The notes under the pieces were generated by a model. The model made no database searches. It saw only the letters and a list, made by a program, of their open reading frames with translations, and was not told the origin of the DNA. From Bacteroidota bacterium (GTDB taxonomy: Bacteria; Bacteroidota; Bacteroidia; Chitinophagales; Chitinophagaceae), in NCBI GenBank assembly GCA_016183765.1, contig JACPEA010000007.1:152076-216075 (forward strand): a stretch of DNA of 64,000 bases, in the 5' to 3' direction. Shown here in pieces: positions 12,271 through 21,313 of this stretch (its first letter is position 1; every line of letters begins with the position of its first letter). The translations under genes and the position numbers were made by a program.

Positions 12271-12657
12271 AGCAGGTAGGCGGCTTTGGCCTCAGTTGCA
12301 TTGGTTTGCGCCTGTGTGGTCAGTAAGGAAAAACAGAAAATACAGGATACCAGTATTTTTTTCAACATATTCTTTGGTTTGATGAGTAGGGGCGGGACAG
12401 TTTACTGCCAGCAAAAATCAGATAGTGCGTTTGCTGGTTTTCAGTTCTGTTCTGTTCTGTTCTGCCTGTTGGTCTTACGATCGGGTGAAGGATCGATGCA
12501 GATCCAGGGATCTGAGAGAGGTTCATTGAATTGGCTTCGTGGCATTTCATAGGCAGATTCGAATAGTTGGGATATAATTTCCTTAAATGTATTAATATTT
12601 CGAAATTATGCTAAGTGAGGAAGAACCTCATTTTCTGAAGCGTCTCTTTTGATGATC

Positions 12658-12798
12658 GTTCTCCGCAGAAGTCTCCCCGGAGGGGGACTCTGCGGATTTG
12701 AAGCAGTTTAAAGATCGTTTGAAACAGTGTTTGTTAAAAGTGAGTAAGTAGCCCTCCGTAAGCCGCAGAGTCCTCTTCGAGAGACGTCTGCGGAGAAC
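12658..12798. repeat. REP/REPIN-like doublet: two GC-rich hairpins in inverted orientation
   Basis: Arm 12658-12695 (GTTCTCCGCAGAAGTCTCCCCGGAGGGGGACTCTGCGG) and arm 12763-12798 (CCGCAGAGTCCTCTTCGAGAGACGTCTGCGGAGAAC) are near reverse complements, and each folds on itself. Confidence 0.65.
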
Positions 12799-12812
12799 AG
12801 CCTGCAATATTT

Positions 12813-13661
12813 TCAGCCAATTTTATTAGATTTTTCAATGTTGCACTTCTTGCACAAGATTTGTAAATTTCTATAAGTGGTCGCCCCGCCTTTTGAAAAA
12901 GGTATAATGTGATCAAACTCCAAATTTTCCTGGCTACCACATTTTACGCACCTTCCTGAATCTCTATTCCAAACTTTGTCTTTTACATCTTGTGGTATTG
13001 GCTCTCTATTCCATTCAGAATCCCCGAATTGGTTTGAAATTAGCCCCTCCTCAAGAAGTTCTTTGAATACATCTCTTTGCAATTGTTTTTTACGCTCTTT
13101 TTCTAATAATTCTTGTCTAATTTGATCTTTCTCAGACTTCAATTGTTGATCTTTTAGCTGTTCTTGATATTCTATTCTTCTTTTTTCAATTTCAATTTTG
13201 TTTTCTTCATAAAATGAGTTTACATCTGTATTAAAAAATTTAAAACCATTTTGAATTAGTTTTTCTAACTCAGCTTCTGTTTTGATTCTAACTTCTCTTG
13301 CTGCAGAACCTTGGTTTGGCCCAACTATTCCAATTTGCTCAAGGTTGTCCATGATTCTGCCAGCACGATTATACCCTAATTTCATTCTTCGTTGAATAAG
13401 GGAAGTGCTGCCCATTTGGCTTTGAATTACAAGTCTTGCTGCGTCTTCTAGTAAAGGATCAAATTCGGCAGAAACGTTTTCATTCATTTCTTTTTCGCCT
13501 TTAGCGAAATAATCAATTAAATCATTTTTCTCTTGTTCTGATAAATTGACTTTTTTTTCACTAGGTTCTTTTGGTGATTCTTCTGAAATTAGATTAGTAG
13601 TATTGCTGGAACTTGGTTGTAAAGTTTTTTTTCCTAAAATTCGGTTTAGTAAGTTCATCAT
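12813..13661 (-). CDS. FtsK gamma (winged-helix) domain + coiled coil + HNH endonuclease fusion
   Basis: DPLLEDAARLVIQSQMGSTSLIQRRMKLGYNRAGRIMDNLEQIGIVGP is an FtsK-gamma signature. CVKCGSQENLEFDHIIPFSKGG...NLQILCKKCNIEK is an HNH signature. Confidence 0.85.
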   Translation of the reverse strand: MMNLLNRILGKKTLQPSSSNTTNLISEESPKEPSEKKVNLSEQEKNDLIDYFAKGEKEMNENVSAEFDPLLEDAARLVIQSQMGSTSLIQRRMKLGYNRAGRIMDNLEQIGIVGPNQGSAAREVRIKTEAELEKLIQNGFKFFNTDVNSFYEENKIEIEKRRIEYQEQLKDQQLKSEKDQIRQELLEKERKKQLQRDVFKELLEEGLISNQFGDSEWNREPIPQDVKDKVWNRDSGRCVKCGSQENLEFDHIIPFSKGGATTYRNLQILCKKCNIEKSNKIG

Positions 13662-13678
13662 ACAAGTATTTTAAAATA

Positions 13679-13848
13679 GTAGGCAACCTTCTTGGCTTTG
13701 CGAAGGGCGGGGGAGATTTTCCTTCTGCTGACTTGGCCACTAAAGCTCGATTAATAAAAGCCAATTTACTGAAGCACGGTCAGAAATCCAACAGCCGATA
13801 GCCAAGTACAAATGCCAACTTTTGCCAAGCAGCATGTTAGGCGTAGTT
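13679..13848 (-). other. attC-like recombination site A (170 bp)
   Basis: Read on the minus strand it runs AACTACGCCTAAC ... GTTGCCTAC, with inner arms CTTGGC/GCCAAG. It shares AAAGCCAATTTACTGAAGC and GGTCAGAAATCCAA with site C. Confidence 0.75.
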
Positions 13849-14803
13849 AGTCTGAGACAAACCTTGAAAAAAACTCATTACTCTTCTCTTGACTTTCAAA
13901 AGATGCAAGGTAGTCCAAGGCTATTTGTTCGCTATAATAAGCTGCCAATATATTTGTCATTCTCCTAAAAGCTTCAGGATGTGATTCGCTTTTTGAATTA
14001 CTCACAGTACCCATAATTGCAAAAAATGTACTGAGTACAGGGACAAAATTATTTTTTTCCATTTCGGGAAATAAATTGAATGCAGCTTTTTCAAAAATGG
14101 GATATGCAGAAAGGTCTGCTTTATATTCAATTTCGTGACTTCTGTCTTCTATGAATGCTTCGAATGGATGGTCTGCAAGGTTGGCAAAATTAGCTTCTTC
14201 ATCAAAATCGCCATTAATAAAATGACCAATTTCATGGCAAATAGTGAATAATTCTGAAAGCATTATCGAAACCATGTGAGACAAATATTTTGAATCCAAC
14301 TTTACTAATGCTCCAATAGGGAAATGATATTTTTTGTAGTTATCGAATAGTTCGTTCATGAATTTAATATAGTCATCGCTTGTAAGAGTCTTAATATCTC
14401 CTCTATTACAAAACCTCACAATTTTTGGATTATTCGTCGCATGAGCTAGTTTACCATGTTTATTAAGTAGTATAAATAATCCTTCATAAATTAAAACAGC
14501 ATATTTGCCTGTTGAGCTCTTGGAACAAGTTGCGTTAAAACTTCCATTTCGAACGAAACCAATAGCTAAAGAACTTTCAATTTTTTCTTTTAAGTCTGGT
14601 GAGACTGTATTTAGTATTGCATTTAGGTATTGATTTAGAAGAAATTTCATCTGATACATCCCATCTAATTGGTCAGGAGAAAGATGAACTACATCCTGGC
14701 TGTTAAGTTTTGTGAACTCAGGATCTTTTTCAAAAGGCAAATCATACACTTTCGTACAAATTTGTTGAAGATATTCAAGATATTCTTGAGCTGTGTCAAA
14801 CAT
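13847..14803 (-). CDS. HExxH zinc metallopeptidase, Lit / Peptidase U49-like
   Basis: ICHEIGHF followed by EYKADLSA and HP...R motifs. No signal peptide. Family assignment by motif only. Confidence 0.55.
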   Translation of the reverse strand: MFDTAQEYLEYLQQICTKVYDLPFEKDPEFTKLNSQDVVHLSPDQLDGMYQMKFLLNQYLNAILNTVSPDLKEKIESSLAIGFVRNGSFNATCSKSSTGKYAVLIYEGLFILLNKHGKLAHATNNPKIVRFCNRGDIKTLTSDDYIKFMNELFDNYKKYHFPIGALVKLDSKYLSHMVSIMLSELFTICHEIGHFINGDFDEEANFANLADHPFEAFIEDRSHEIEYKADLSAYPIFEKAAFNLFPEMEKNNFVPVLSTFFAIMGTVSNSKSESHPEAFRRMTNILAAYYSEQIALDYLASFESQEKSNEFFSRFVSD

Positions 14804-14832
14804 GCCTTTTCAATATTTAAAGAGGGTGATAG

Positions 14833-14976
14833 AATTACGCCTAACGGTTTGCAGCTACCCGAAGGGCGGGACTTATACCGCAAAACTTGATTTGAAAAAC
14901 TAATGTTTCATTACCCAAAAAACTTTTTTTAGAACGCGAAACCCCGCCTTTTGGCTAGCTGCTGTTATCGGCTGCC
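14833..14976 (-). other. attC-like recombination site B (144 bp)
   Basis: Imperfect palindrome: GCCTAAC-GGTTTGCAGCTA-CCCGAAGGGCGGG ... CCCGCCTTTTGGC-TAGCTGCT-GTTATCGGC. On the minus strand it ends in the canonical GTTAGGC (GTTRRRY). Confidence 0.8.
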
Positions 14977-15024
14977 TTTCTTCTCATTCTAGAGTCATGC
15001 GTCATATGCTTGTTATCATCTAAG

Positions 15025-16887
15025 TCACAAAGGGAAGAAACCTTGTCGGCCTCTTGTTTTTTCGTTAGTAAAATGTATATAGTTTATCTTTGATTTTAAT
15101 TCTTCTCTTGGTTCTTTATTGTCAAGGATTATTATTTGTCTATCATCTAAAGTATCCGCTAAGTCTTTAAAGAAAGCATCCTGCATATCTCTTGAAATTT
15201 CTTCTAGTTCGCCTTGCTCCTTTCCATGATAAGTTGTCAATGGAGAATCAATTATTATATTTCTTGGGTGTGCTAAATTATTACTTACACAATAGTCCAT
15301 AAGCCCAATTACAAAGGCAGAATAGGTAATGGCTCGAATTCCTTTTCCATGTGCATTTCTGTTTTTCTGATTTATAACGAAGTCAAATATGCTATAATCT
15401 GTATTGAAATTTACAGTAGCTACATTTGGATATTTCCAATTAGTGAGAATTACTTTTATTGTATCACATAAACCTTGAAGAATTGTATATTTTATGCCAT
15501 CAGATTGCTCTCCAACTTTAGGTTTCCTTGCAAGTTCGATTTCAAGTTGATTTCTTTGGCCATAATAGTTTGCAAGTTGTGTTTTGTAAAGTTCTTGCTC
15601 TTTTATTAGGGAAAGCTCAATTAACAACGCATCAATCTCCTCCTTTGTAGAAGATTTTATTGGTTCTATATTATTTTGAATTTCACTTTGAACAATTTGG
15701 TATTGTCGTTTGAGAGAAATTAATTCGTTATCCCTTTTGGATTTGTCGGAATTTAACTGAGCTAATGTGCTTTCTAAGTCAGAGAGTTTGATTTTAATTT
15801 TATCAATCTCCTTTTGAATTGAATCAATTACGCTTGAACTTTTTTTATCTTCTTCAATTATGCAATCGTAGTGGCCTTTGTCCATGTCACCACCACACAA
15901 AGGACACTTAATTGTTGTCAATTGAGAAAAGTAATCTTCTCCTTCTGTAATAAATGCTAATCGCTTTATATCACTATTGTAATGCTCTTGAAGTAAAACA
16001 AATCTGCTTCTTAATTCTTCGTGAAGAATATTTTTGGAATCCAGTTCACTAATTGAATTATAGAGTTGTTTCTTTTCTTTGGTTAAGGTTTCAAGTTGTA
16101 CGCTGGACTCTTGCAAGACAAGCGATAGCTTTTCTATTTTGGCTTGGAGTTGTTTTTGCTTTTCATTGGTTTTTTCCTTTTCTAGTATCAAAATCTTTTC
16201 AGAAAGGTCTTTAATTAAAGAATCTACAAATTCAAGTTTGCCCTTTATTCTACTGTGATAAATTTTAGCTTCCTCAACTTGTTCAAGTTCCTTTGCATCT
16301 TTTCCAGTAAGTAAAATTTCAAGAATGGATTGCTCTTGTATTTGCTGATTGAATTGTCCTGATGAATAAACGGGGGATTTTTCGGTAATGATTCTTTCCT
16401 CGTCAATCAAAGTTAATCTTGCTATATCTCTATAACTTATTTCTCTTTTTGCATTGTTCTTATTAATTCTAACATACTTTTCATCATAGCCAGAAAGTTG
16501 AAGAAGAAAACTGGATATGTTATCTTTTGAACCGTTAACATGTTGCGACTTTAATTCTCTTGCTGTGCCTTGTGTTTGGAACATGTCAATCTCTACTTCT
16601 TTTAATTTAAAAGTTCCGCCTTGCATATTTCTTGAAAGCGTGAATGTTTGTCCAGTGTAGGTTTTAATTTCAAGCAAAATATTTGAATAACCAATTGCTT
16701 CAGGTATTGCTTTGGGTGGATTGCTGCCACCAAGCATATAATTTATGCAAGCGAATACATAGGATTTACCAGTATCGGATAGACCTGAGATAACATTAAA
16801 ACCTTTTTCAAAAGTCAACTTTGCTGGCTTACTCGTTAGACCAGTTACGTGCAAGTTGCTAATGTAGAATCCGAAATTATTGTTCAT
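15025..16887 (-). CDS. lmuB: Lamassu LmuB, SMC/Rad50-like ABC ATPase
   Basis: Walker A GLSDTGKS, coiled coils with a CPLC zinc-hook motif, AHGKG signature and Walker B IIIDSP. 620 aa, the short form. Confidence 0.85.
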   Translation of the reverse strand: MNNNFGFYISNLHVTGLTSKPAKLTFEKGFNVISGLSDTGKSYVFACINYMLGGSNPPKAIPEAIGYSNILLEIKTYTGQTFTLSRNMQGGTFKLKEVEIDMFQTQGTARELKSQHVNGSKDNISSFLLQLSGYDEKYVRINKNNAKREISYRDIARLTLIDEERIITEKSPVYSSGQFNQQIQEQSILEILLTGKDAKELEQVEEAKIYHSRIKGKLEFVDSLIKDLSEKILILEKEKTNEKQKQLQAKIEKLSLVLQESSVQLETLTKEKKQLYNSISELDSKNILHEELRSRFVLLQEHYNSDIKRLAFITEGEDYFSQLTTIKCPLCGGDMDKGHYDCIIEEDKKSSSVIDSIQKEIDKIKIKLSDLESTLAQLNSDKSKRDNELISLKRQYQIVQSEIQNNIEPIKSSTKEEIDALLIELSLIKEQELYKTQLANYYGQRNQLEIELARKPKVGEQSDGIKYTILQGLCDTIKVILTNWKYPNVATVNFNTDYSIFDFVINQKNRNAHGKGIRAITYSAFVIGLMDYCVSNNLAHPRNIIIDSPLTTYHGKEQGELEEISRDMQDAFFKDLADTLDDRQIIILDNKEPREELKSKINYIHFTNEKTRGRQGFFPL

Positions 16888-17386
16888 TTTCTATTCCTCT
16901 TAAAAGTGATTCATTTGAAAATTCACCTCCCCAAACATCCAAATTGTTCTTAATAAAGAGAGAGAGTGTTTCATCGGAGTATGGTTTGAACTTATTGACA
17001 AGCCAAGAAGAAATTTCTTTCAAACTCATGGCGTATTCGGATTTATTGTATTCAAGAAACGGCTTTGTAAGTTCAGTTGCCTTGTATGTGATGCCTGTTG
17101 AATCAAAAACAGAATCTACTAATTGCTTACTGTGCATTAATGTCAGTCCTTTTTTTACCAATTCTCTTTTTACTAAAATTTCGGTTGTTCTGTGTGGTAT
17201 ACTTGGGTGAATACTTTTCGGTCCGCCTGGAACATCACTTGAATGAACTAGTATGTAGTCGTAATACACAAGTCGTTGTAAATCACAACCGTCAGGTTGT
17301 AATTCATTCAATAGATATAAAACTCTTAACCCGATTTCAAGGGGTGAATTGAAAACGCTTGTATTTCTTTCTTCAAATAGATTCAT
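16877..17386 (-). CDS. lmuC: Lamassu LmuC / ABC three-component system middle component
   Basis: FNSPLEIGLR...DLQRLVYYDYILVHS resembles ABC-3C middle components. It overlaps both neighbouring genes. Confidence 0.8.
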   Translation of the reverse strand: MNLFEERNTSVFNSPLEIGLRVLYLLNELQPDGCDLQRLVYYDYILVHSSDVPGGPKSIHPSIPHRTTEILVKRELVKKGLTLMHSKQLVDSVFDSTGITYKATELTKPFLEYNKSEYAMSLKEISSWLVNKFKPYSDETLSLFIKNNLDVWGGEFSNESLLRGIENEQ

Positions 17387-18471
17387 GACTTAACCCAAGT
17401 TAGTTTGTTTTCATTAGCAAGGTGATGGCAAATTCCGATTTTGTCTTGTGTCTTAGAAACTGAAAGCAATGCATTACTTTGAATGTTTAATGCAACTGCA
17501 GTTGCAGTTGTTTTTTTTACATTTTCATATCCACTAGAATGTGTTTGATTTGAAATGTCAACTACTCCATGAAATATTTCTTCTTTCAATTCAGCGAAGC
17601 AATTATTCCCAGTAGGCAAGCTGTCTCTGCTGAACTCATTCAATGCTTCAGCCCAATAAAAGCACTCTCGTTGCCGGTTGAAGTGGTCAAATAATTCCGT
17701 ATGTGAATTTAATTCTGTTATAGTGTGTACATCTATTTTGAGATGGTCGGAATATGCTTCAAATAATTGTTCAACGTATCTAATTGACATTTCAGCTTCA
17801 TGGATAGGATTAATTCTTGGCATCATTCTCCTTTTCAAACCTCCACCAAATCTTGCTGCATAATAACTGGTTTGTTTATGTTGCTCAATTAGTTCTTGAG
17901 GGTCTAAAAATGTGAAAATTGAAAAGTCAATCATTTCAATGTGTGCTTTTAGTTCAGACGACAGCGGAATGTCAACTTTCGTAGTTATACCTCCTTTGCA
18001 GTGTTTGTCCCATTCGATATATAATTGTTTTTTTAGTTCTTCTGGCTTTGTAAGATAATCACCAACTGTTGGGCCGACTCCCTTTGGTGCCACGAAATAG
18101 TATTTATTGGGTAACGAATAATCTTTTTTAAATGTGTAGTAACAAAGTTTTCCCAATTCTAACCAAATATCCCCTGGCATTAAGGCATTGCTATAGTGTT
18201 TACATTGGTAATTGTCCCATTTTCCACTTTCATCAATAATTGCCACAACGTCTCTTCCTTTATCCTTAGCTCCACCTGTTCTCCAAACCTTTATGTATTT
18301 TTTCTCAAAGTAGCCGGCAACCCATTCTCTAACTATGTCTTCAAACTCATCCTCAGATACAATCTTAAGCTTGTCAATTGCAGGAATGGGGGTTCCAATC
18401 AAAATATCCTGATTTGTCAGGAGTCCAATAGACTTGGGTCTTTCTGGTAATATTAGTTCTGCGTCAGCCAA
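17383..18471 (-). CDS. lmuA: Lamassu LmuA effector: Mrr/Cap4-like PD-(D/E)xK nuclease + ABC-3C C-terminal domain
   Basis: FEDIVREW...GGAKDKGRDVVA...YQCKHY nuclease motifs; C-terminal DKIGICHHLANE. TTG start. Confidence 0.8.
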   Translation of the reverse strand: MADAELILPERPKSIGLLTNQDILIGTPIPAIDKLKIVSEDEFEDIVREWVAGYFEKKYIKVWRTGGAKDKGRDVVAIIDESGKWDNYQCKHYSNALMPGDIWLELGKLCYYTFKKDYSLPNKYYFVAPKGVGPTVGDYLTKPEELKKQLYIEWDKHCKGGITTKVDIPLSSELKAHIEMIDFSIFTFLDPQELIEQHKQTSYYAARFGGGLKRRMMPRINPIHEAEMSIRYVEQLFEAYSDHLKIDVHTITELNSHTELFDHFNRQRECFYWAEALNEFSRDSLPTGNNCFAELKEEIFHGVVDISNQTHSSGYENVKKTTATAVALNIQSNALLSVSKTQDKIGICHHLANENKLTWVKS

Positions 18472-18516
18472 ATTTTATTTTTTTAATGTTGCTGTTTTTT
18501 CAATTTAGTTCTTTAA

Positions 18517-18691
18517 GGTTGCCGATAACATTCTAGAACAGGCGAAGGTTGTGGGGAGATATTCCTTCATCTGGCTTAGCCACTAATGCCTCGATTAGCT
18601 AAAGCCAATTTACTGAAGCTTGGTCAGAAATCCAAAGGCTGATGGGTTAACTACAAAACTACATCTTGCCAAGATGCGGTTTGACTGTAGT
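18517..18691 (-). other. attC-like recombination site C (about 175 bp)
   Basis: On the minus strand it ends in GTTATCGGCAACC. Its core is highly similar to site A (19 bp and 14 bp identical blocks at 18601-18619 and 18622-18635). Confidence 0.75.
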
Positions 18692-18702
18692 GTATTTCAG
18701 CA

Positions 18703-19965
18703 CTAGCTAATCACTTTTTCAATATCCTCTTTCCAGGTTTTGAATCCATTTTGTAAGTCTGCGTAATTATGGATAACTCTTTTGAAAGTATCTTCTCTTC
18801 TATTTATATATTCATTTTTTCCGTCTCTGATTATTTCATTGATGATTTTGTCTGTATTTGTCATTACTTTTTTTAAATCTTCTACATTAGCACTCACTGT
18901 CCAAATATAGGTTGCTTCTTCAGTGTCAAGTGTCTCCCAGACAATATGAAACTTTTCAATGCTACTTAAAAGAAATACAAATGAAAATGGTTTGTGAACA
19001 AAGCGTAGCTTTTGTATATGAGCTTGATGTTTACTTGAGAGATATCTTAGGTGTTTGTAATGTTTAGTTGTAGATTTTTCAAGAAGATTTTCAAAAAAGT
19101 CATTTTCAGTCTTAAATATTTTATTTCCATTTAAATTTTCAGTTGCCATGGTTTCAAGGTACTCATCCATGGTAAATAACTGTTTATCACCTAATAAATC
19201 CTTTTTTCTTATCGACTTCACAAAAGCAAATTTAACTTCTTCAATAAGAGTCTTGTCTATTTTCTCTATTTCTTCGGACTTGGCATTTTGTGAAATAATT
19301 CTGCCATCTAATGTTATAATAGATATAGCTACTTGAATTTTCTTTGTTTTTAATACACTTGAAAAATAATTTTTGATTGCGTCATATTCTTCTATGATGT
19401 TATCATTTATTATTTCAAATTCAATTTGTTTTTTAAAATGTTGTATCTTCTTTTCAAAAGCCACTTTTCCAGAAAGAAAGCTTACATGTTTGATTGGAAT
19501 TGAAAATGATTCATAGTAAGTTTCTTTCTTTGGTTCTCTTTGAATTTTTAGTTGAAGTTCTGTTGAGGTGTCTTTACTATCTTCTATTGATTTTTGTTGC
19601 AAAATCTTTATAGGATTGTTGCTATTTGAATTCGGTAATGGCTTGCTTGTGTTTATACTAAAAGACTGCAAAAGCCCTCTTGTTTCGATGCTTTTAAATT
19701 TTACTTTCTCTATTGTAATTAATGTTTCGGCTAGTTTGATTTGACTATTTGAAAATTTTGTTTCGCCTACGTCATATGATAAAACTTCTACGATTATTGT
19801 ACACTCATTTTCTATATAGTCAAGTACTCTTACTGTCCAGAATGCAGGTGCTTTTAATTTTATTGGAAAATCAGAAATTTGAACTTGCTCAAAATCTAAT
19901 GCAATCTCTTCTGTAAGAAAAGCTAAGTCGTCTTTAAACAAAATATTTAGCTCTTGTCCTTTCAT
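18703..19965 (-). CDS. Hypothetical cytoplasmic protein (420 aa), first cassette of the array
   Basis: Intact AT-rich ORF. The C-terminus KLRFVHKPFSFVFLL...WETLDTEEATYIW resembles a domain I recall from Bacteroidota DEAD/DEAH helicases, but no helicase motifs are present here. Confidence 0.7.
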   Translation of the reverse strand: MKGQELNILFKDDLAFLTEEIALDFEQVQISDFPIKLKAPAFWTVRVLDYIENECTIIVEVLSYDVGETKFSNSQIKLAETLITIEKVKFKSIETRGLLQSFSINTSKPLPNSNSNNPIKILQQKSIEDSKDTSTELQLKIQREPKKETYYESFSIPIKHVSFLSGKVAFEKKIQHFKKQIEFEIINDNIIEEYDAIKNYFSSVLKTKKIQVAISIITLDGRIISQNAKSEEIEKIDKTLIEEVKFAFVKSIRKKDLLGDKQLFTMDEYLETMATENLNGNKIFKTENDFFENLLEKSTTKHYKHLRYLSSKHQAHIQKLRFVHKPFSFVFLLSSIEKFHIVWETLDTEEATYIWTVSANVEDLKKVMTNTDKIINEIIRDGKNEYINRREDTFKRVIHNYADLQNGFKTWKEDIEKVIS

Positions 19966-20260
19966 TAGTAGATTGTTTAGGTAACATTACAAGCAACTTT
20001 ACAATGTACGTTATTTTATAAAAAATATAAAATATTTATCTTATATATTGATGAACAAGTAATGGATAGTTAAATAAATGAAGTAGTCAATTCGCTACTT
20101 TTAGAGCAAATAACTTCTGTAAATAGCATTTTACAATGAGCCCACATGCTATATATACACGTGCTAAATGTCAGTATGAAATTGCCCCCACAACTTTTTT
20201 GAATCCCCCTTGTGTCCCCCCGGGGTATATGTTTGATGTATATTATATGGGCAACTAAAA

Positions 20261-20512: not shown

Positions 20513-21313
20513 ATGAAACGATATAGTGTCAATCTCATTCTCTGGAGACACGACCCTGTCGGAGAGCTCAAAGATCAGTACCCAATTTACCTGAAAATTG
20601 TCGTTGAGGGAAAGAAATCTTACATCTCCACCGGAGTCGTTGTAAAGGCTATACAGTGGGATAGCAGTAATCAGTGCGTGGTGGCTCACCCGACCGCCCG
20701 GCTGCTTAACATGGATCTCACCAATCGCAAAAGCCAGGCTTTGCAGCGCATCATTAATTTGGAGCTGGGTGGAAAGGACTTCTCAGCCTTATCGCTGAAG
20801 CAGCAGCTGATAGGAACCAATCCATCCAACATCTTTGACTTCATCGATCGCTACTATGCTGAGGTGCGGGACAAACGTTCTACAGGTACTCTGATTCAGT
20901 ATCGCAAGCATCGAAACACACTCAAAGCCTTTCATGGTTCTGATGATCTTACCTTCGAACAGATAACTCCGGATTACCTGCTGAAGTTTGAGACACACCT
21001 GCGGAAGGAGATGAAGAACAATTACATCAACTCCATATTCAGGATGTACAAGGCCTTCTTCAATGCAGCCATCAAACGTGGTGTCACTACCAACTATCCT
21101 CTGCAGGGTGCAAATCCTGAAGACTGGGGTAAGCCTACAGCATTCGCTGCTGCCGGCGTACAGTACAGCGTCTATCTGCTCACCGGTGAGACCAGCGAAA
21201 GCTCTCCGACTCCGGTTGAAAAGCATGTAGACAAGAGCACTATCATCCTGGCTATTCCTTCCAATGGAGCAGCCAACGCTGATGTAGCTGTAAAAGGTAT
21301 CCTTGCCCTGTAA
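20513..21313 (+). pseudogene. Chimeric ORF: tyrosine integrase N-terminus (arm-binding + SAM-like core-binding domains) fused in frame at about 21100 to an unrelated 70 aa C-terminus, probably from a capsid-module gene
   Basis: YPIYLKIVVEGKKSYISTG (Bacteroidota arm-binding domain) and LTFEQITPDYLLKFETHL...FFNAAIKRG (SAM-like domain) stop at TNYP. There are no R-H-R-Y catalytic residues. The tail LQGANPEDWGK...TIILAIP is not integrase-like. Confidence 0.8.

Follow-up and report, generated by a model that had tools for sequence, protein, structure and literature searches.

Gene content of the array

Six genes lie on the minus strand between positions 12813 and 19965 of the window, the 64,000-nucleotide stretch of a Sediminibacterium (Bacteroidota) chromosome analysed here. 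Three sites, termed A, B and C, divide them into four co-oriented units that hold, in order, a 420-aa protein, a three-gene Lamassu operon, a 318-aa protein and an FtsK-gamma/HNH nuclease. Leaders between a site and the start codon of the downstream gene span 26-58 nt. The ORF listing agrees with the four co-oriented minus-strand units, gaps and leaders described earlier from the DNA letters and ORFs (the sequence-only reading). The genes are:

18703..19965, minus strand: cassette 1, gene for the 420-aa protein, an intact ORF
17383..18471, minus strand: LmuA, first gene of the Lamassu cassette, Mrr-type nuclease with ABC-3C CTD6 (PADLOC 2.6e-109; Pfam CTD6, Mrr_cat)
16877..17386, minus strand: LmuC, ABC-3C middle component 2 (PADLOC 2.9e-53; Pfam MC2 2.2e-50)
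15025..16887, minus strand: LmuB, SMC-like ATPase (PADLOC 1.2e-161)
13847..14803, minus strand: cassette 3, gene for the 318-aa protein, weak Peptidase_M78 match only
12813..13661, minus strand: cassette 4, FtsK-gamma winged helix fused to an HNH nuclease (Pfam FtsK_gamma 6.3e-25, HNH 2.6e-13)

The Lamassu operon is complete, with 3/3 components in order and strong PADLOC and Pfam matches, and is genuine anti-phage defence content. The whole operon forms one 3.6-kb cassette between attC-like sites, whereas a 67% identical Lamassu operon in a Sphingobacteriales MAG lies outside any such cassette context. The 420-aa protein gave no match in Pfam, NCBIfam or PADLOC. The 318-aa protein is possibly a metallopeptidase, given its weak Peptidase_M78 match (E = 0.045, residues 184-208), and PADLOC assigns its gene to no system. 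The FtsK-gamma/HNH product has a relative in Chitinophagales MAG L154 that is 98% identical across the last 40 residues, with divergence starting directly past the stop codon. An array loaded with anti-phage genes, as had been proposed, is borne out for Lamassu, while the defence role of the other three cassettes is putative. Other attC-flanked islets of the same genome carry AbiL and the candidate system PDC-S33.

Intergenic sites and cassette boundaries

The limits of the three sites were refined to run from AAC to GTT on the minus strand:

13838 to 13685 (154 nt), minus strand: site A, attC-like, 155-159-nt class, decayed (nhmmer 48.1 bits)
14966 to 14843 (124 nt), minus strand: site B, attC-like, 124-nt class, intact, with the layout AAC-A-stem...stem-AAACC-GTT
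18681 to 18527 (155 nt), minus strand: site C, attC-like, 155-159-nt Sediminibacterium class, decayed (nhmmer 53.8 bits)

The nhmmer scores come from a profile built from sites in G018, a congeneric Sediminibacterium MAG. The layout of all three is attC-like (R''/L''...L'/R'). Site B ends the Lamassu cassette and starts that of the 318-aa protein. It matches G018 sites 993863, 995642 and 1001912 in length and spacers and belongs to a different sequence class from A and C. The latter two are homologous (82% across 100 nt) and have worn outer stems (8/9 pairs in A, 7/9 in C), and the R'' box of site C reads AAAC in place of AAC. Compared with shuffles, the DNA fold z was -1.96 for site B, +0.38 for A and -1.59 for C; folded whole, A and C were no better than shuffled sequence. 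The long imperfect palindromes reported between the units thus stand for site B but not for A and C.

In both internal cassettes, the opening box pairs with the cassette's own closing box, confirming the 12/13 and 11/13 complementarity first reported for the peptidase (318-aa) and Lamassu cassettes. For example, GTTAGGCGTAATT (14845-14833, minus strand) has one 12/13 inverted partner across the 64-kb window, at 13836-13848, where chance would give 0.04 matches. The 11/13 partner of GTTATCGGCAACC (18529-18517) lies at 14964-14976, exactly on the AAC end of site B, although matches of this quality are not beyond chance window-wide (4 found vs 1.2 expected). The R'' box of site A and the R' box of site B form ten pairs, one mismatch and two pairs, and the R stem between sites B and C forms nine pairs, two mismatches and four pairs. 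These mismatches are not noise: they fall at R-stem positions 10 and 11, which are mismatched family-wide.

The family-wide rule is clearest in G018, where 23/23 consecutive cassettes show ten Watson-Crick pairs, a mismatch at position 11 and four further pairs. Almost all of these cassettes have Watson-Crick pairs at positions 1-9, and most have one at position 10, with covariation at positions 4-7 and 9. Without exception, a G:C pair occupies position 8 and an A.C or A.G mismatch position 11, while positions 12-15 are mostly paired. The rule extends to other genomes (4/4 cassettes in L081, also L072 and, in part, L141), and the 318-aa and Lamassu cassettes of the window obey it, their R stems being perfect by this standard.

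Four duplications inside the G018 array directly demonstrate that cassettes are bounded at GTT. These are 794-1279 nt long, 99-100% identical and cassette-precise, running from the GTT of one site to the ...ACGTT of the next, with flanks that differ on both sides. Further signs of structure come from the L''/L' stem, where Sediminibacterium lineages differ by a compensatory G:C to A:T change, and from folding: reconstituted as in a circle, the sites were more stable than in their array form in 19/19 cases, and the bottom strand was modestly favoured in 14/19.

The ends of the window array are less regular, and four features are found there:

19985..19997, minus strand: head half-site, R' box GTTGCTTGTAATG, opening the first cassette and fitting the family R' consensus GTTnnnnGnAAT
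12799..12812, minus strand: AAAATATTGCAGGC, a possible but weak R'' box remnant of the HNH cassette; AAC and the remaining site are missing
12658..12798, no strand assigned: palindrome Z, reading GTT...AAC (inverted repeats I8, I14), in the position of the terminal site
20513-21313: neighbouring ORF, N-terminal part only of a CTnDOT-type integrase, in a phage remnant

The first cassette conforms to the boundary rule only if a 1-nt indel is allowed. GTTGCTTGTAATG then pairs with the site C R'' box, retaining G:C at position 8 and an A.C mismatch at position 11. Upstream of this half-site, the sequence bears no likeness to the conserved attI of congeners. At the other end, the HNH cassette has lost its closing site, and the likeness of AAAATATTGCAGGC to the reverse-complemented R' extension of site A, AAAATAGTAGGCAAC, depends on a 2-nt indel. 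Palindrome Z reads as attC reversed and is not an attC site; it has short relatives near other islets of the genome. The CTnDOT-type fragment was likewise rejected as the integrase of the array.

A recombinase-associated system in the Chitinophagaceae

The sites of the window recur elsewhere. The A/C repeat has about eight further copies in the same genome, all intergenic, co-oriented with flanking accessory genes and often paired around one unit, and the 124-nt B class has three. Congeners and other Chitinophagaceae genera have both classes in long co-oriented arrays beside a dedicated tyrosine recombinase. For instance, G018 carries a 321-aa tyrosine recombinase, an attI-like junction and at least 23 consecutive cassettes, with 13 strong co-oriented site copies plus sequence-different sites of equal layout. 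These sit between small co-oriented ORFs, from 2 kb downstream of the recombinase, and share their layout with the window sites (AAC, a 1-4 nt spacer, a 12-22-bp stem, a second stem, 5-6 nt, GTT).

Across 10 recombinase loci, the attI-like junction GCGTATATTTAAGT|GTT is conserved, with variable sequence past GTT, and the recombinase lies at a conserved distance from this point where variable cassettes start. This P0001-type recombinase occurs in 87/200 good Chitinophagaceae genomes and 63/135 genera, and is closest to XerA and IntI. It aligns end to end without a break with archaeal XerA (5hxy); the alignment with VchIntIA extends to either side of a gap, with 25 residues in place of 65, and the recombinase lacks the ~40-residue IntI-specific insertion. 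Among NCBIfam models, XerA ranks best and TIGR02249 (integron integrase, cut-off 265 bits) second, with scores below both cut-offs. The C-terminal LSPL tail aligns with VchIntIA, and public annotations name relatives XerD.

Adjacency and conserved junctions suggest that this recombinase is the enzyme of the system. An intact system, as seen in G018, comprises a Xer/IntI-like tyrosine recombinase and then a conserved attI-like site that contains several direct repeats, followed by cassettes oriented as the recombinase gene. Each cassette has one to five genes behind a promoter-proximal leader and is completed by a foldable site of 110-195 nt, which runs R''...AAC, 1-4 nt, L'' stem, variable centre, L' stem, 5-6 nt and GTT...R'. 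Crossover most likely occurs at or beside GTT, so that the bases past GTT would be part of the following cassette, whose closing R'' box they pair with. Reciprocal pairing would then be the footprint of a circular intermediate, and single-stranded folded DNA would be the probable substrate. The window array was very probably assembled by the same mechanism, and the region at 12.8-20.0 kb is very probably a relic array of four gene cassettes of this integron-like capture system.

Probable relic status and relationship to known systems

The window array is, with high confidence, a frozen relic comparable to a CALIN, since the recombinase is gone, sites A and C are worn and an unrelated palindrome takes the place of the terminal site; it is now inherited as a fixed defence islet. 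Exact copies of the 318-aa gene occur on 11 Logan contigs, and the six places listed for them come from six sequencing runs. A comparison of cassette order between strains gave no variation: gene order was identical across the Logan contigs listed, from six runs, with no strain-level gain or loss at the locus among them. Downstream of prfB, the nearest species have no synteny with the window genome, so that no empty site was recovered there.

It is unlikely that the array is still a working CALIN, its cassettes excised, reordered or exported in trans by a host XerC/XerD-like enzyme or by a P0001-type integrase on incoming DNA. Site B is structurally intact, two cassettes have perfect R stems by the family rule, the genome keeps two Xer-like recombinases, and trans supply is conceivable given how common P0001-type enzymes are in the family. 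However, little of the L stems remains at sites A and C, no terminal site is left, order is constant and a P0001 ortholog is absent from the genome, which is 99.98% complete. As for the shuffling system of CALIN type originally proposed, the label is fair because no matching recombinase is present, but present-day shuffling does not fit a relic.

A CALIN, as defined for IntegronFinder, is a cluster of attC sites without an integron integrase (PMC9024848), and integrase-less clusters likewise occur elsewhere in genomes. IntegronFinder 2.0 found in Bacteroidetes proper only cassette-less integrases and one complete integron, in Salinibacter (PMC9024848). The Chitinophagaceae arrays resemble sedentary chromosomal integrons (the Vibrio cholerae superintegron, with VCR-type attC) in their tandem, co-oriented, promoterless-looking cassettes, in the folded AAC...GTT sites with R and L boxes between them, and in the similarity of sites inside one array. 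They also share cassettes that end at GTT and whose start pairs with their own site, intra-array cassette duplications and an attI-like junction beside a tyrosine recombinase. Unlike integrons, the system has its recombinase gene co-oriented with the cassettes, sites with a branched centre and unequal spacers (1-4 nt vs 5-6 nt), and a host in the class Bacteroidia.

A degraded classical integron, in which a canonical IntI with the I2 insertion formerly acted on ordinary attC sites and the Xer-like neighbour in congeners is incidental, is very improbable. The attC layout (AAC...GTT, R and L boxes, G|TT-type boundaries), the second-ranking TIGR02249 match and the LSPL tail would fit it. Classical attC sites, however, measure roughly 57-141 nt, against 110-195 nt here with a 10+4-bp R stem and a fixed A.C mismatch at position 11, and it is the insertion-less recombinase that keeps its distance from the conserved junction in 10 loci. 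None of six Sediminibacterium genomes tested (0/6) had a match above the TIGR02249 cut-off. The absence of an integrase next to the array, noted at the outset, extends to the whole window genome, in which no integron-type integrase was found (TIGR02249 <= 79 bits). The integron-like reading was supported by all sequence tests run, but as a system outside the classical integron family.

Xer systems (XerA, XerC/D, Acinetobacter plasmid dif modules and Xer-exploiting elements) offer another likeness: discrete gene modules bounded by recombination sites, and a recombinase alignable throughout with XerA. Their sites are roughly 28-bp duplexes, whereas those of the Chitinophagaceae are foldable elements in direct orientation, and the recombinase is an extra, patchily distributed array-side gene rather than part of the housekeeping Xer pair.

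Two readings without cassette recombination fare worse. Ordinary intergenic repeats (REP/BIME-like, miniature transposons or terminators) would be intergenic, palindromic and present in more than 10 copies in the genome, as these are, and the different palindrome Z does occur at the array end. This reading is nevertheless highly doubtful: terminal inverted repeats and target duplications are absent, every copy is co-oriented with its genes, duplicated units start and stop at GTT, the variable boxes covary over the length of a cassette and not inside one repeat, and the arrays adjoin one recombinase family. Least credible is a structured RNA (5' leader, small RNA or riboswitch) in the A/C core, which has conserved small hairpins always just upstream of a co-oriented gene but matches nothing in Rfam, even under a permissive threshold, and has functionally unrelated downstream genes (nuclease, ATPase, P-type transporter, reductase), and which cannot account for box complementarity over 1-3.6 kb or for duplication ends at GTT.

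In Vibrio integrons, defence systems are reported to be carried as cassettes (bioRxiv 10.1101/2024.07.02.601686), and the relic array is alike in that defence systems travel in this form. No paper describing this Chitinophagaceae gene-capture system was found; though apparently undescribed, the system is widespread, and a common means of gene capture in the Chitinophagaceae.

Cassettes, sites and flanks of the window array

Integrons are a textbook platform for bacterial gene capture. The explanation that we consider very probable for 12.8-20.0 kb of the window is a relic array of an integron-like capture system. All six genes from 12813 to 19965 are carried on the minus strand, with three long gaps between them, and a 6.3-kb stretch holds three attC-like sites and a head half-site.

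Features of the window array and its surroundings
12658-12798: palindrome Z, 141 nt, perfect 12-bp ends GTTCTCCGCAGA...TCTGCGGAGAAC; occupies the place of the last cassette's site
12813-13661, minus: FtsK-gamma winged helix fused to an HNH nuclease (Pfam)
13838 to 13685, minus: site A, AAC to GTT, 154 nt
14966 to 14843, minus: site B, AAC to GTT, 124 nt
15025-18471, minus: complete Lamassu (PADLOC LmuA 2.6e-109, LmuC 2.9e-53, LmuB 1.2e-161; Pfam agrees)
18681 to 18527, minus: site C, AAC to GTT, 155 nt
20513-21313, right flank: ORF for the N-terminal half of a CTnDOT-type integrase (Arm-DNA-bind_5 and SAM_5, without the catalytic domain)

The Lamassu operon holds the LmuA effector, the LmuB SMC-like ATPase and LmuC together. 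Its nearest relative, a 67% identical operon in a Sphingobacteriales MAG, lies outside any cassette context, which suggests that the operon in the window was captured as a unit. The 318-aa protein has one weak M78-peptidase match (E = 0.045, residues 184-208), and a search of genome contigs returned no relatives of it; the 420-aa protein has no match in Pfam, NCBIfam or PADLOC. Relatives of the HNH protein do no more than hint at a boundary directly after the stop codon.

The sequence-only reading proposed that these cassettes are delimited by reciprocal boxes, and the boxes are real. Box GTTAGGCGTAATT (14845-14833) has a single 12/13 inverted partner in the 64-kb window, at 13836-13848 (chance expectation 0.04). 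The inverted partner of box GTTATCGGCAACC (18529-18517), with 11/13 matches, occupies 14964-14976, which is precisely where site B has its far end; window-wide, a match of this quality is within chance (1.2 expected). Sites A and C are homologous (82% over 100 nt), and B is a different sequence. The description of all three as long imperfect palindromes holds for B, the only site with a long-hairpin fold (z = -1.96), and fails for A and C, which fold no better than shuffled sequence. B keeps the attC layout, and A and C retain their ends with worn stems.

At the tail of the array, the HNH cassette has at most a remnant of the closing R'' box (12799-12812), and palindrome Z stands in for the rest of its site. 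Palindrome Z is not a fourth attC, as its layout is reversed (GTT...AAC). Short relatives of it are found near other cassette islets of the genome, at C12:188438, C12:185326 and C15:699271. Beyond it, 27 nt at 12511-12537 are 78% complementary to the conserved A/C core, forming an inverted partial copy that is perhaps what is left of another, rearranged site.

On the left, the array is flanked by the RNase P RNA and prfB. The integrase ORF on the right was rejected as the enzyme of the array, being a truncated CTnDOT-type N-terminus that is followed by crAss-like tail genes. The phage-like block that it opens (20513-59714) goes on with crAss-like tail-ring proteins 1 and 2 and four giant ORFs (1778, 1751, 3735 and 1400 aa) as far as a tRNA-Arg(tct) gene, and resembles the remnant of a crAss-like prophage.

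Sites of both types recur in the same genome, with about eight further copies of the A/C type and three of the 124-nt B type. The A/C-type copies are all intergenic and co-oriented with neighbouring genes. They are often paired around one unit, and lone copies are found upstream of two further units, a P-type ATPase and a PEP-mutase/AhpD pair.

Related sites elsewhere in the genome of the window
C11:139803-142355: AbiLi and AbiLii pair between two direct A/C-type copies, about 10-12 kb upstream of the window start
C12:188248-190053: attC-like
C1:425555-426758: attC-like
C15:166250-166373: attC-like
C13:63924-64040: attC-like
C12:182630-182749: attC-like

The AbiL locus resembles a second, small islet of defence cassettes. 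The other five entries comprise one pair of sites around a PDC-S33 (RelA/SpoT-like) gene, one pair around a RibD_C-type reductase and the three copies of the 124-nt class. A very improbable alternative, that these repeats are REP elements or miniature transposons, is contradicted by the co-orientation of all copies with genes and by reciprocity that spans whole cassettes; no target duplications were seen. Rfam returned no match to the sites at either the gathering or a permissive threshold, and a home-made genome scan for an AAC-stem...stem-GTT pattern was non-discriminating (979 matches versus 735 in a Markov control).

A full array in a congener and the pairing rule of cassette ends

A full array was found in a MAG of the same genus, Sediminibacterium sp. 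NI882-mx-bin02. Here, 13 strong co-oriented A/C-type copies are spread over 32 kb among small co-oriented ORFs, starting 2 kb downstream of the gene for P0001, a tyrosine recombinase of 321 aa, and the remaining gaps hold sites of other sequence with the same layout. This layout runs R''...AAC, 1-4 nt, a stem of 12-22 bp, a variable centre, the return stem, 5-6 nt and GTT...R', and was seen in 10 sequence-diverse sites of the MAG as well as in site B of the window, which belongs to the 124-nt class of the MAG by its length and both spacers. Between Sediminibacterium lineages, the L stem shows a compensatory G:C to A:T swap.

The cassettes of this array are discrete units with ends at GTT. Four internal duplications of 794-1279 nt (99-100% identical) run from the GTT of one site to the ...ACGTT of the next, with differing flanks. 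In one of the four, an internal cassette was copied to the first position, where it abuts non-attC sequence 205 nt past the recombinase stop codon. Another cassette (G018:C1:998117-1001991) spans 3.9 kb and five ORFs between one pair of reciprocal boxes, so multi-gene cassettes like that of Lamassu are not exceptional in the system.

The reciprocity of cassette ends was examined in 23 consecutive cassettes of the MAG, by comparing two 17-base stretches, one starting at the GTT of the opening site and the other finishing with the AAC of the closing site. All 23 obey the rule that the opening R' box pairs with the closing R'' box of the same cassette, forming the R stem, as had been claimed for the window, where both internal cassettes conform. 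Positions 1-9 are Watson-Crick pairs in essentially all 23 cassettes and position 10 in most, with several pair types at positions 4-7 and 9 (i.e., covariation) and G:C at position 8 throughout. Position 11 is always a mismatch, either A.C (19 cases) or A.G (4 cases), after which pairing mostly resumes at positions 12-15. Classical integrons use a single-stranded bottom strand with extrahelical bases as substrate; in the present sites, the A.C of the unpaired position 11 reads T.G on the bottom strand, and the two spacers are unequal. The rule also applies to all four cassettes of a further locus (L081) and to another (L072), and partly to one in a MAG of a different genus (L141).

Folding agrees with a circular cassette form. 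In 19/19 cases, the fold of a site becomes more stable than in the array once the site is placed beside the R' box that it pairs with, the arrangement expected in a circle (mean bottom-strand fold of -33.3 versus -24.9 kcal/mol); the bottom strand is the stabler one in only 14 of the 19 sites.

Within the window, the R stem of the 318-aa cassette has ten paired positions, one mismatch and two further pairs, and that of the Lamassu cassette has nine pairs, two mismatches and four pairs, a variant pattern that is also present in the MAG. The mismatches of the window boxes are therefore the fixed unpaired positions of the family and not noise. The 420-aa cassette fits only given a 1-nt insertion in the R'' box of site C (AAAC), with which positions 8 (G:C) and 11 (A.C) are kept. 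Of the four window cassettes, the two internal ones comply in full, the 420-aa cassette complies if an indel is allowed, and the HNH cassette is truncated.

The associated recombinase and a candidate attachment site

The recombinase P0001 is encoded in the same orientation as the cassettes. Its best NCBIfam match is a XerA/'integron integrase' model (201 bits, cut-off 220), and it matches the integron-integrase model TIGR02249 in two stretches at 180 bits, below the cut-off of 265. The alignment with XerA (5hxy) is unbroken. Against VchIntIA (2a3v), residues 41-214 align to 8-181 and 240-312 to 247-319, leaving 25 residues in P0001 where VchIntIA has 65; the IntI-specific insertion is thus absent.

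Relatives of P0001 number in the thousands; public annotation names them XerD or tyrosine recombinase and never an integron integrase. Of 200 good Chitinophagaceae genomes, 87 encode a family member, frequently near the end of a contig, and 63 of 135 genera are represented. Bearers of the recombinase include Sediminibacterium salmoneum NBRC 103935, Sediminibacterium sp. C3 and Lacibacter sp. MH-610. Many relatives are about 400 aa long, with an N-terminus that exceeds the 321-aa Sediminibacterium form by 70-100 residues. Most lie on contigs of 1-3 kb, as would be expected if repeat arrays break assemblies.

Ten recombinase loci of Sediminibacterium and relatives share a conserved junction, GCGTATATTTAAGT|GTT, the one at which the duplicated first cassette of the MAG begins. 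Ahead of it stand 2-4 direct repeats of the type GACAATACAAAAWGTATAAC, and the sequence after it varies, as would be expected of an attI site.

Putative attachment region of the congener array
L068 13740-13932 (G018:C1:988740-988932), downstream of the recombinase gene: attI-like region, four direct repeats of about 20 nt, CGACAATACAAAATRTATAAC

The number and sequence of these four CGACAATACAAAATRTATAAC-type repeats are kept across Sediminibacterium loci, making them candidate recombinase-binding sites.

State of the window array and its place among known systems

The genome of the window (99.98% complete) contains no ortholog of P0001, and a search of it for an IntI-type recombinase, as the sequence-only reading had suggested, came back empty (best TIGR02249 score 79 bits, cut-off 265). 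The head of the array has no similarity to the conserved attI of congeners. The exact 318-aa protein occurs on 11 Logan contigs, and the places shown, which come from six sequencing runs, share one order (420 aa, LmuA, LmuC, LmuB, 318 aa, HNH, a 99-aa ORF and prfB). Runs that contain the array include SRR13007707 and SRR12532595. Comparison of gene order, proposed as a sign of shuffling, thus gave no cassette gain or loss across these contigs; the exact HNH protein has no copy on record. prfB is kept across the genus, but the sequence downstream of it in three relatives (G051, G017 and G050) is unlike the window, so with species-level relatives non-syntenic here, no insertion-free locus can be demonstrated. 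Considering the worn A and C stems, the lost terminal site, a head without attI, the missing recombinase and the constant order, the most plausible reading of the array is a frozen relic in which shuffling has ended.

The proposal of an integron-like CALIN, an attC cluster lacking an integron integrase, is supported with two qualifications. Reciprocal boxes, GTT boundaries and the lack of a matching recombinase in the genome agree with it; the system is not a classical integron, and the array is no longer shuffled here. With at least two sites and no integron integrase nearby, the array is a CALIN provided that its attC-like sites count as attC.

Like integrons, the system combines a recombinase, an attI-like junction in congeners, attC-like sites, GTT boundaries and the footprint of circular cassettes, and the attC architecture and G/TT boundary of classical integrons are both present. 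In contrast to them, it lacks the IntI insertion, its recombinase gene is co-oriented with the cassettes, and its sites are longer and branched; neither the genome of the window nor P0001 provides an integrase with this insertion and a TIGR02249 score above cut-off. Xer/dif modules differ in another way. XerC/XerD binding sites are short (about 28 bp), whereas the sites here are foldable elements of 110-195 nt in direct orientation.

We found no description of such a gene-capture system in the literature. Integrons are regarded as nearly absent from Bacteroidetes proper, where IntegronFinder 2.0 recorded integrases that lack cassettes and, as the sole complete integron, one in Salinibacter (PMC9024848). 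Where reviews count 'Bacteroidota' among the phyla with integrons, they do not elaborate. A tyrosine recombinase survey, which says of its integron-like subgroup that the insertion 'is not fully conserved', does not describe such arrays (PMC8138268). In Vibrio, integron cassettes are known to carry defence systems (bioRxiv 10.1101/2024.07.02.601686).

Taken together, the evidence moderately favours a second integron lineage in the Chitinophagaceae. It would use a Xer/IntI-like recombinase that lacks the insertion with which classical integrases read folded attC, and would capture genes by attI x attC recombination on long, branched sites of 110-195 nt whose R stem has 10+4 bp and is always mismatched at position 11. 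About 44% of the good genomes of the family encode the recombinase. The cassettes would include whole multi-gene defence systems (Lamassu, AbiL), left stranded as islets where the enzyme has been lost, as in the window.

If true, this would extend cassette-based gene exchange to a major soil and freshwater family, and the I2 insertion would be dispensable for reading folded attC DNA, a mechanistic question that is directly testable. Tools keyed to the hallmark domain of IntI would then undercount integrons. The R-stem rule (GTT plus 7 bases, G:C at position 8 and a mismatch at position 11) offers a simple signature of cassette ends. As the window illustrates, a complete three-gene Lamassu can travel as one cassette, and a small defence island in a genome without an integrase can be the fossil of such an array, which gives at least some defence islets a concrete origin.
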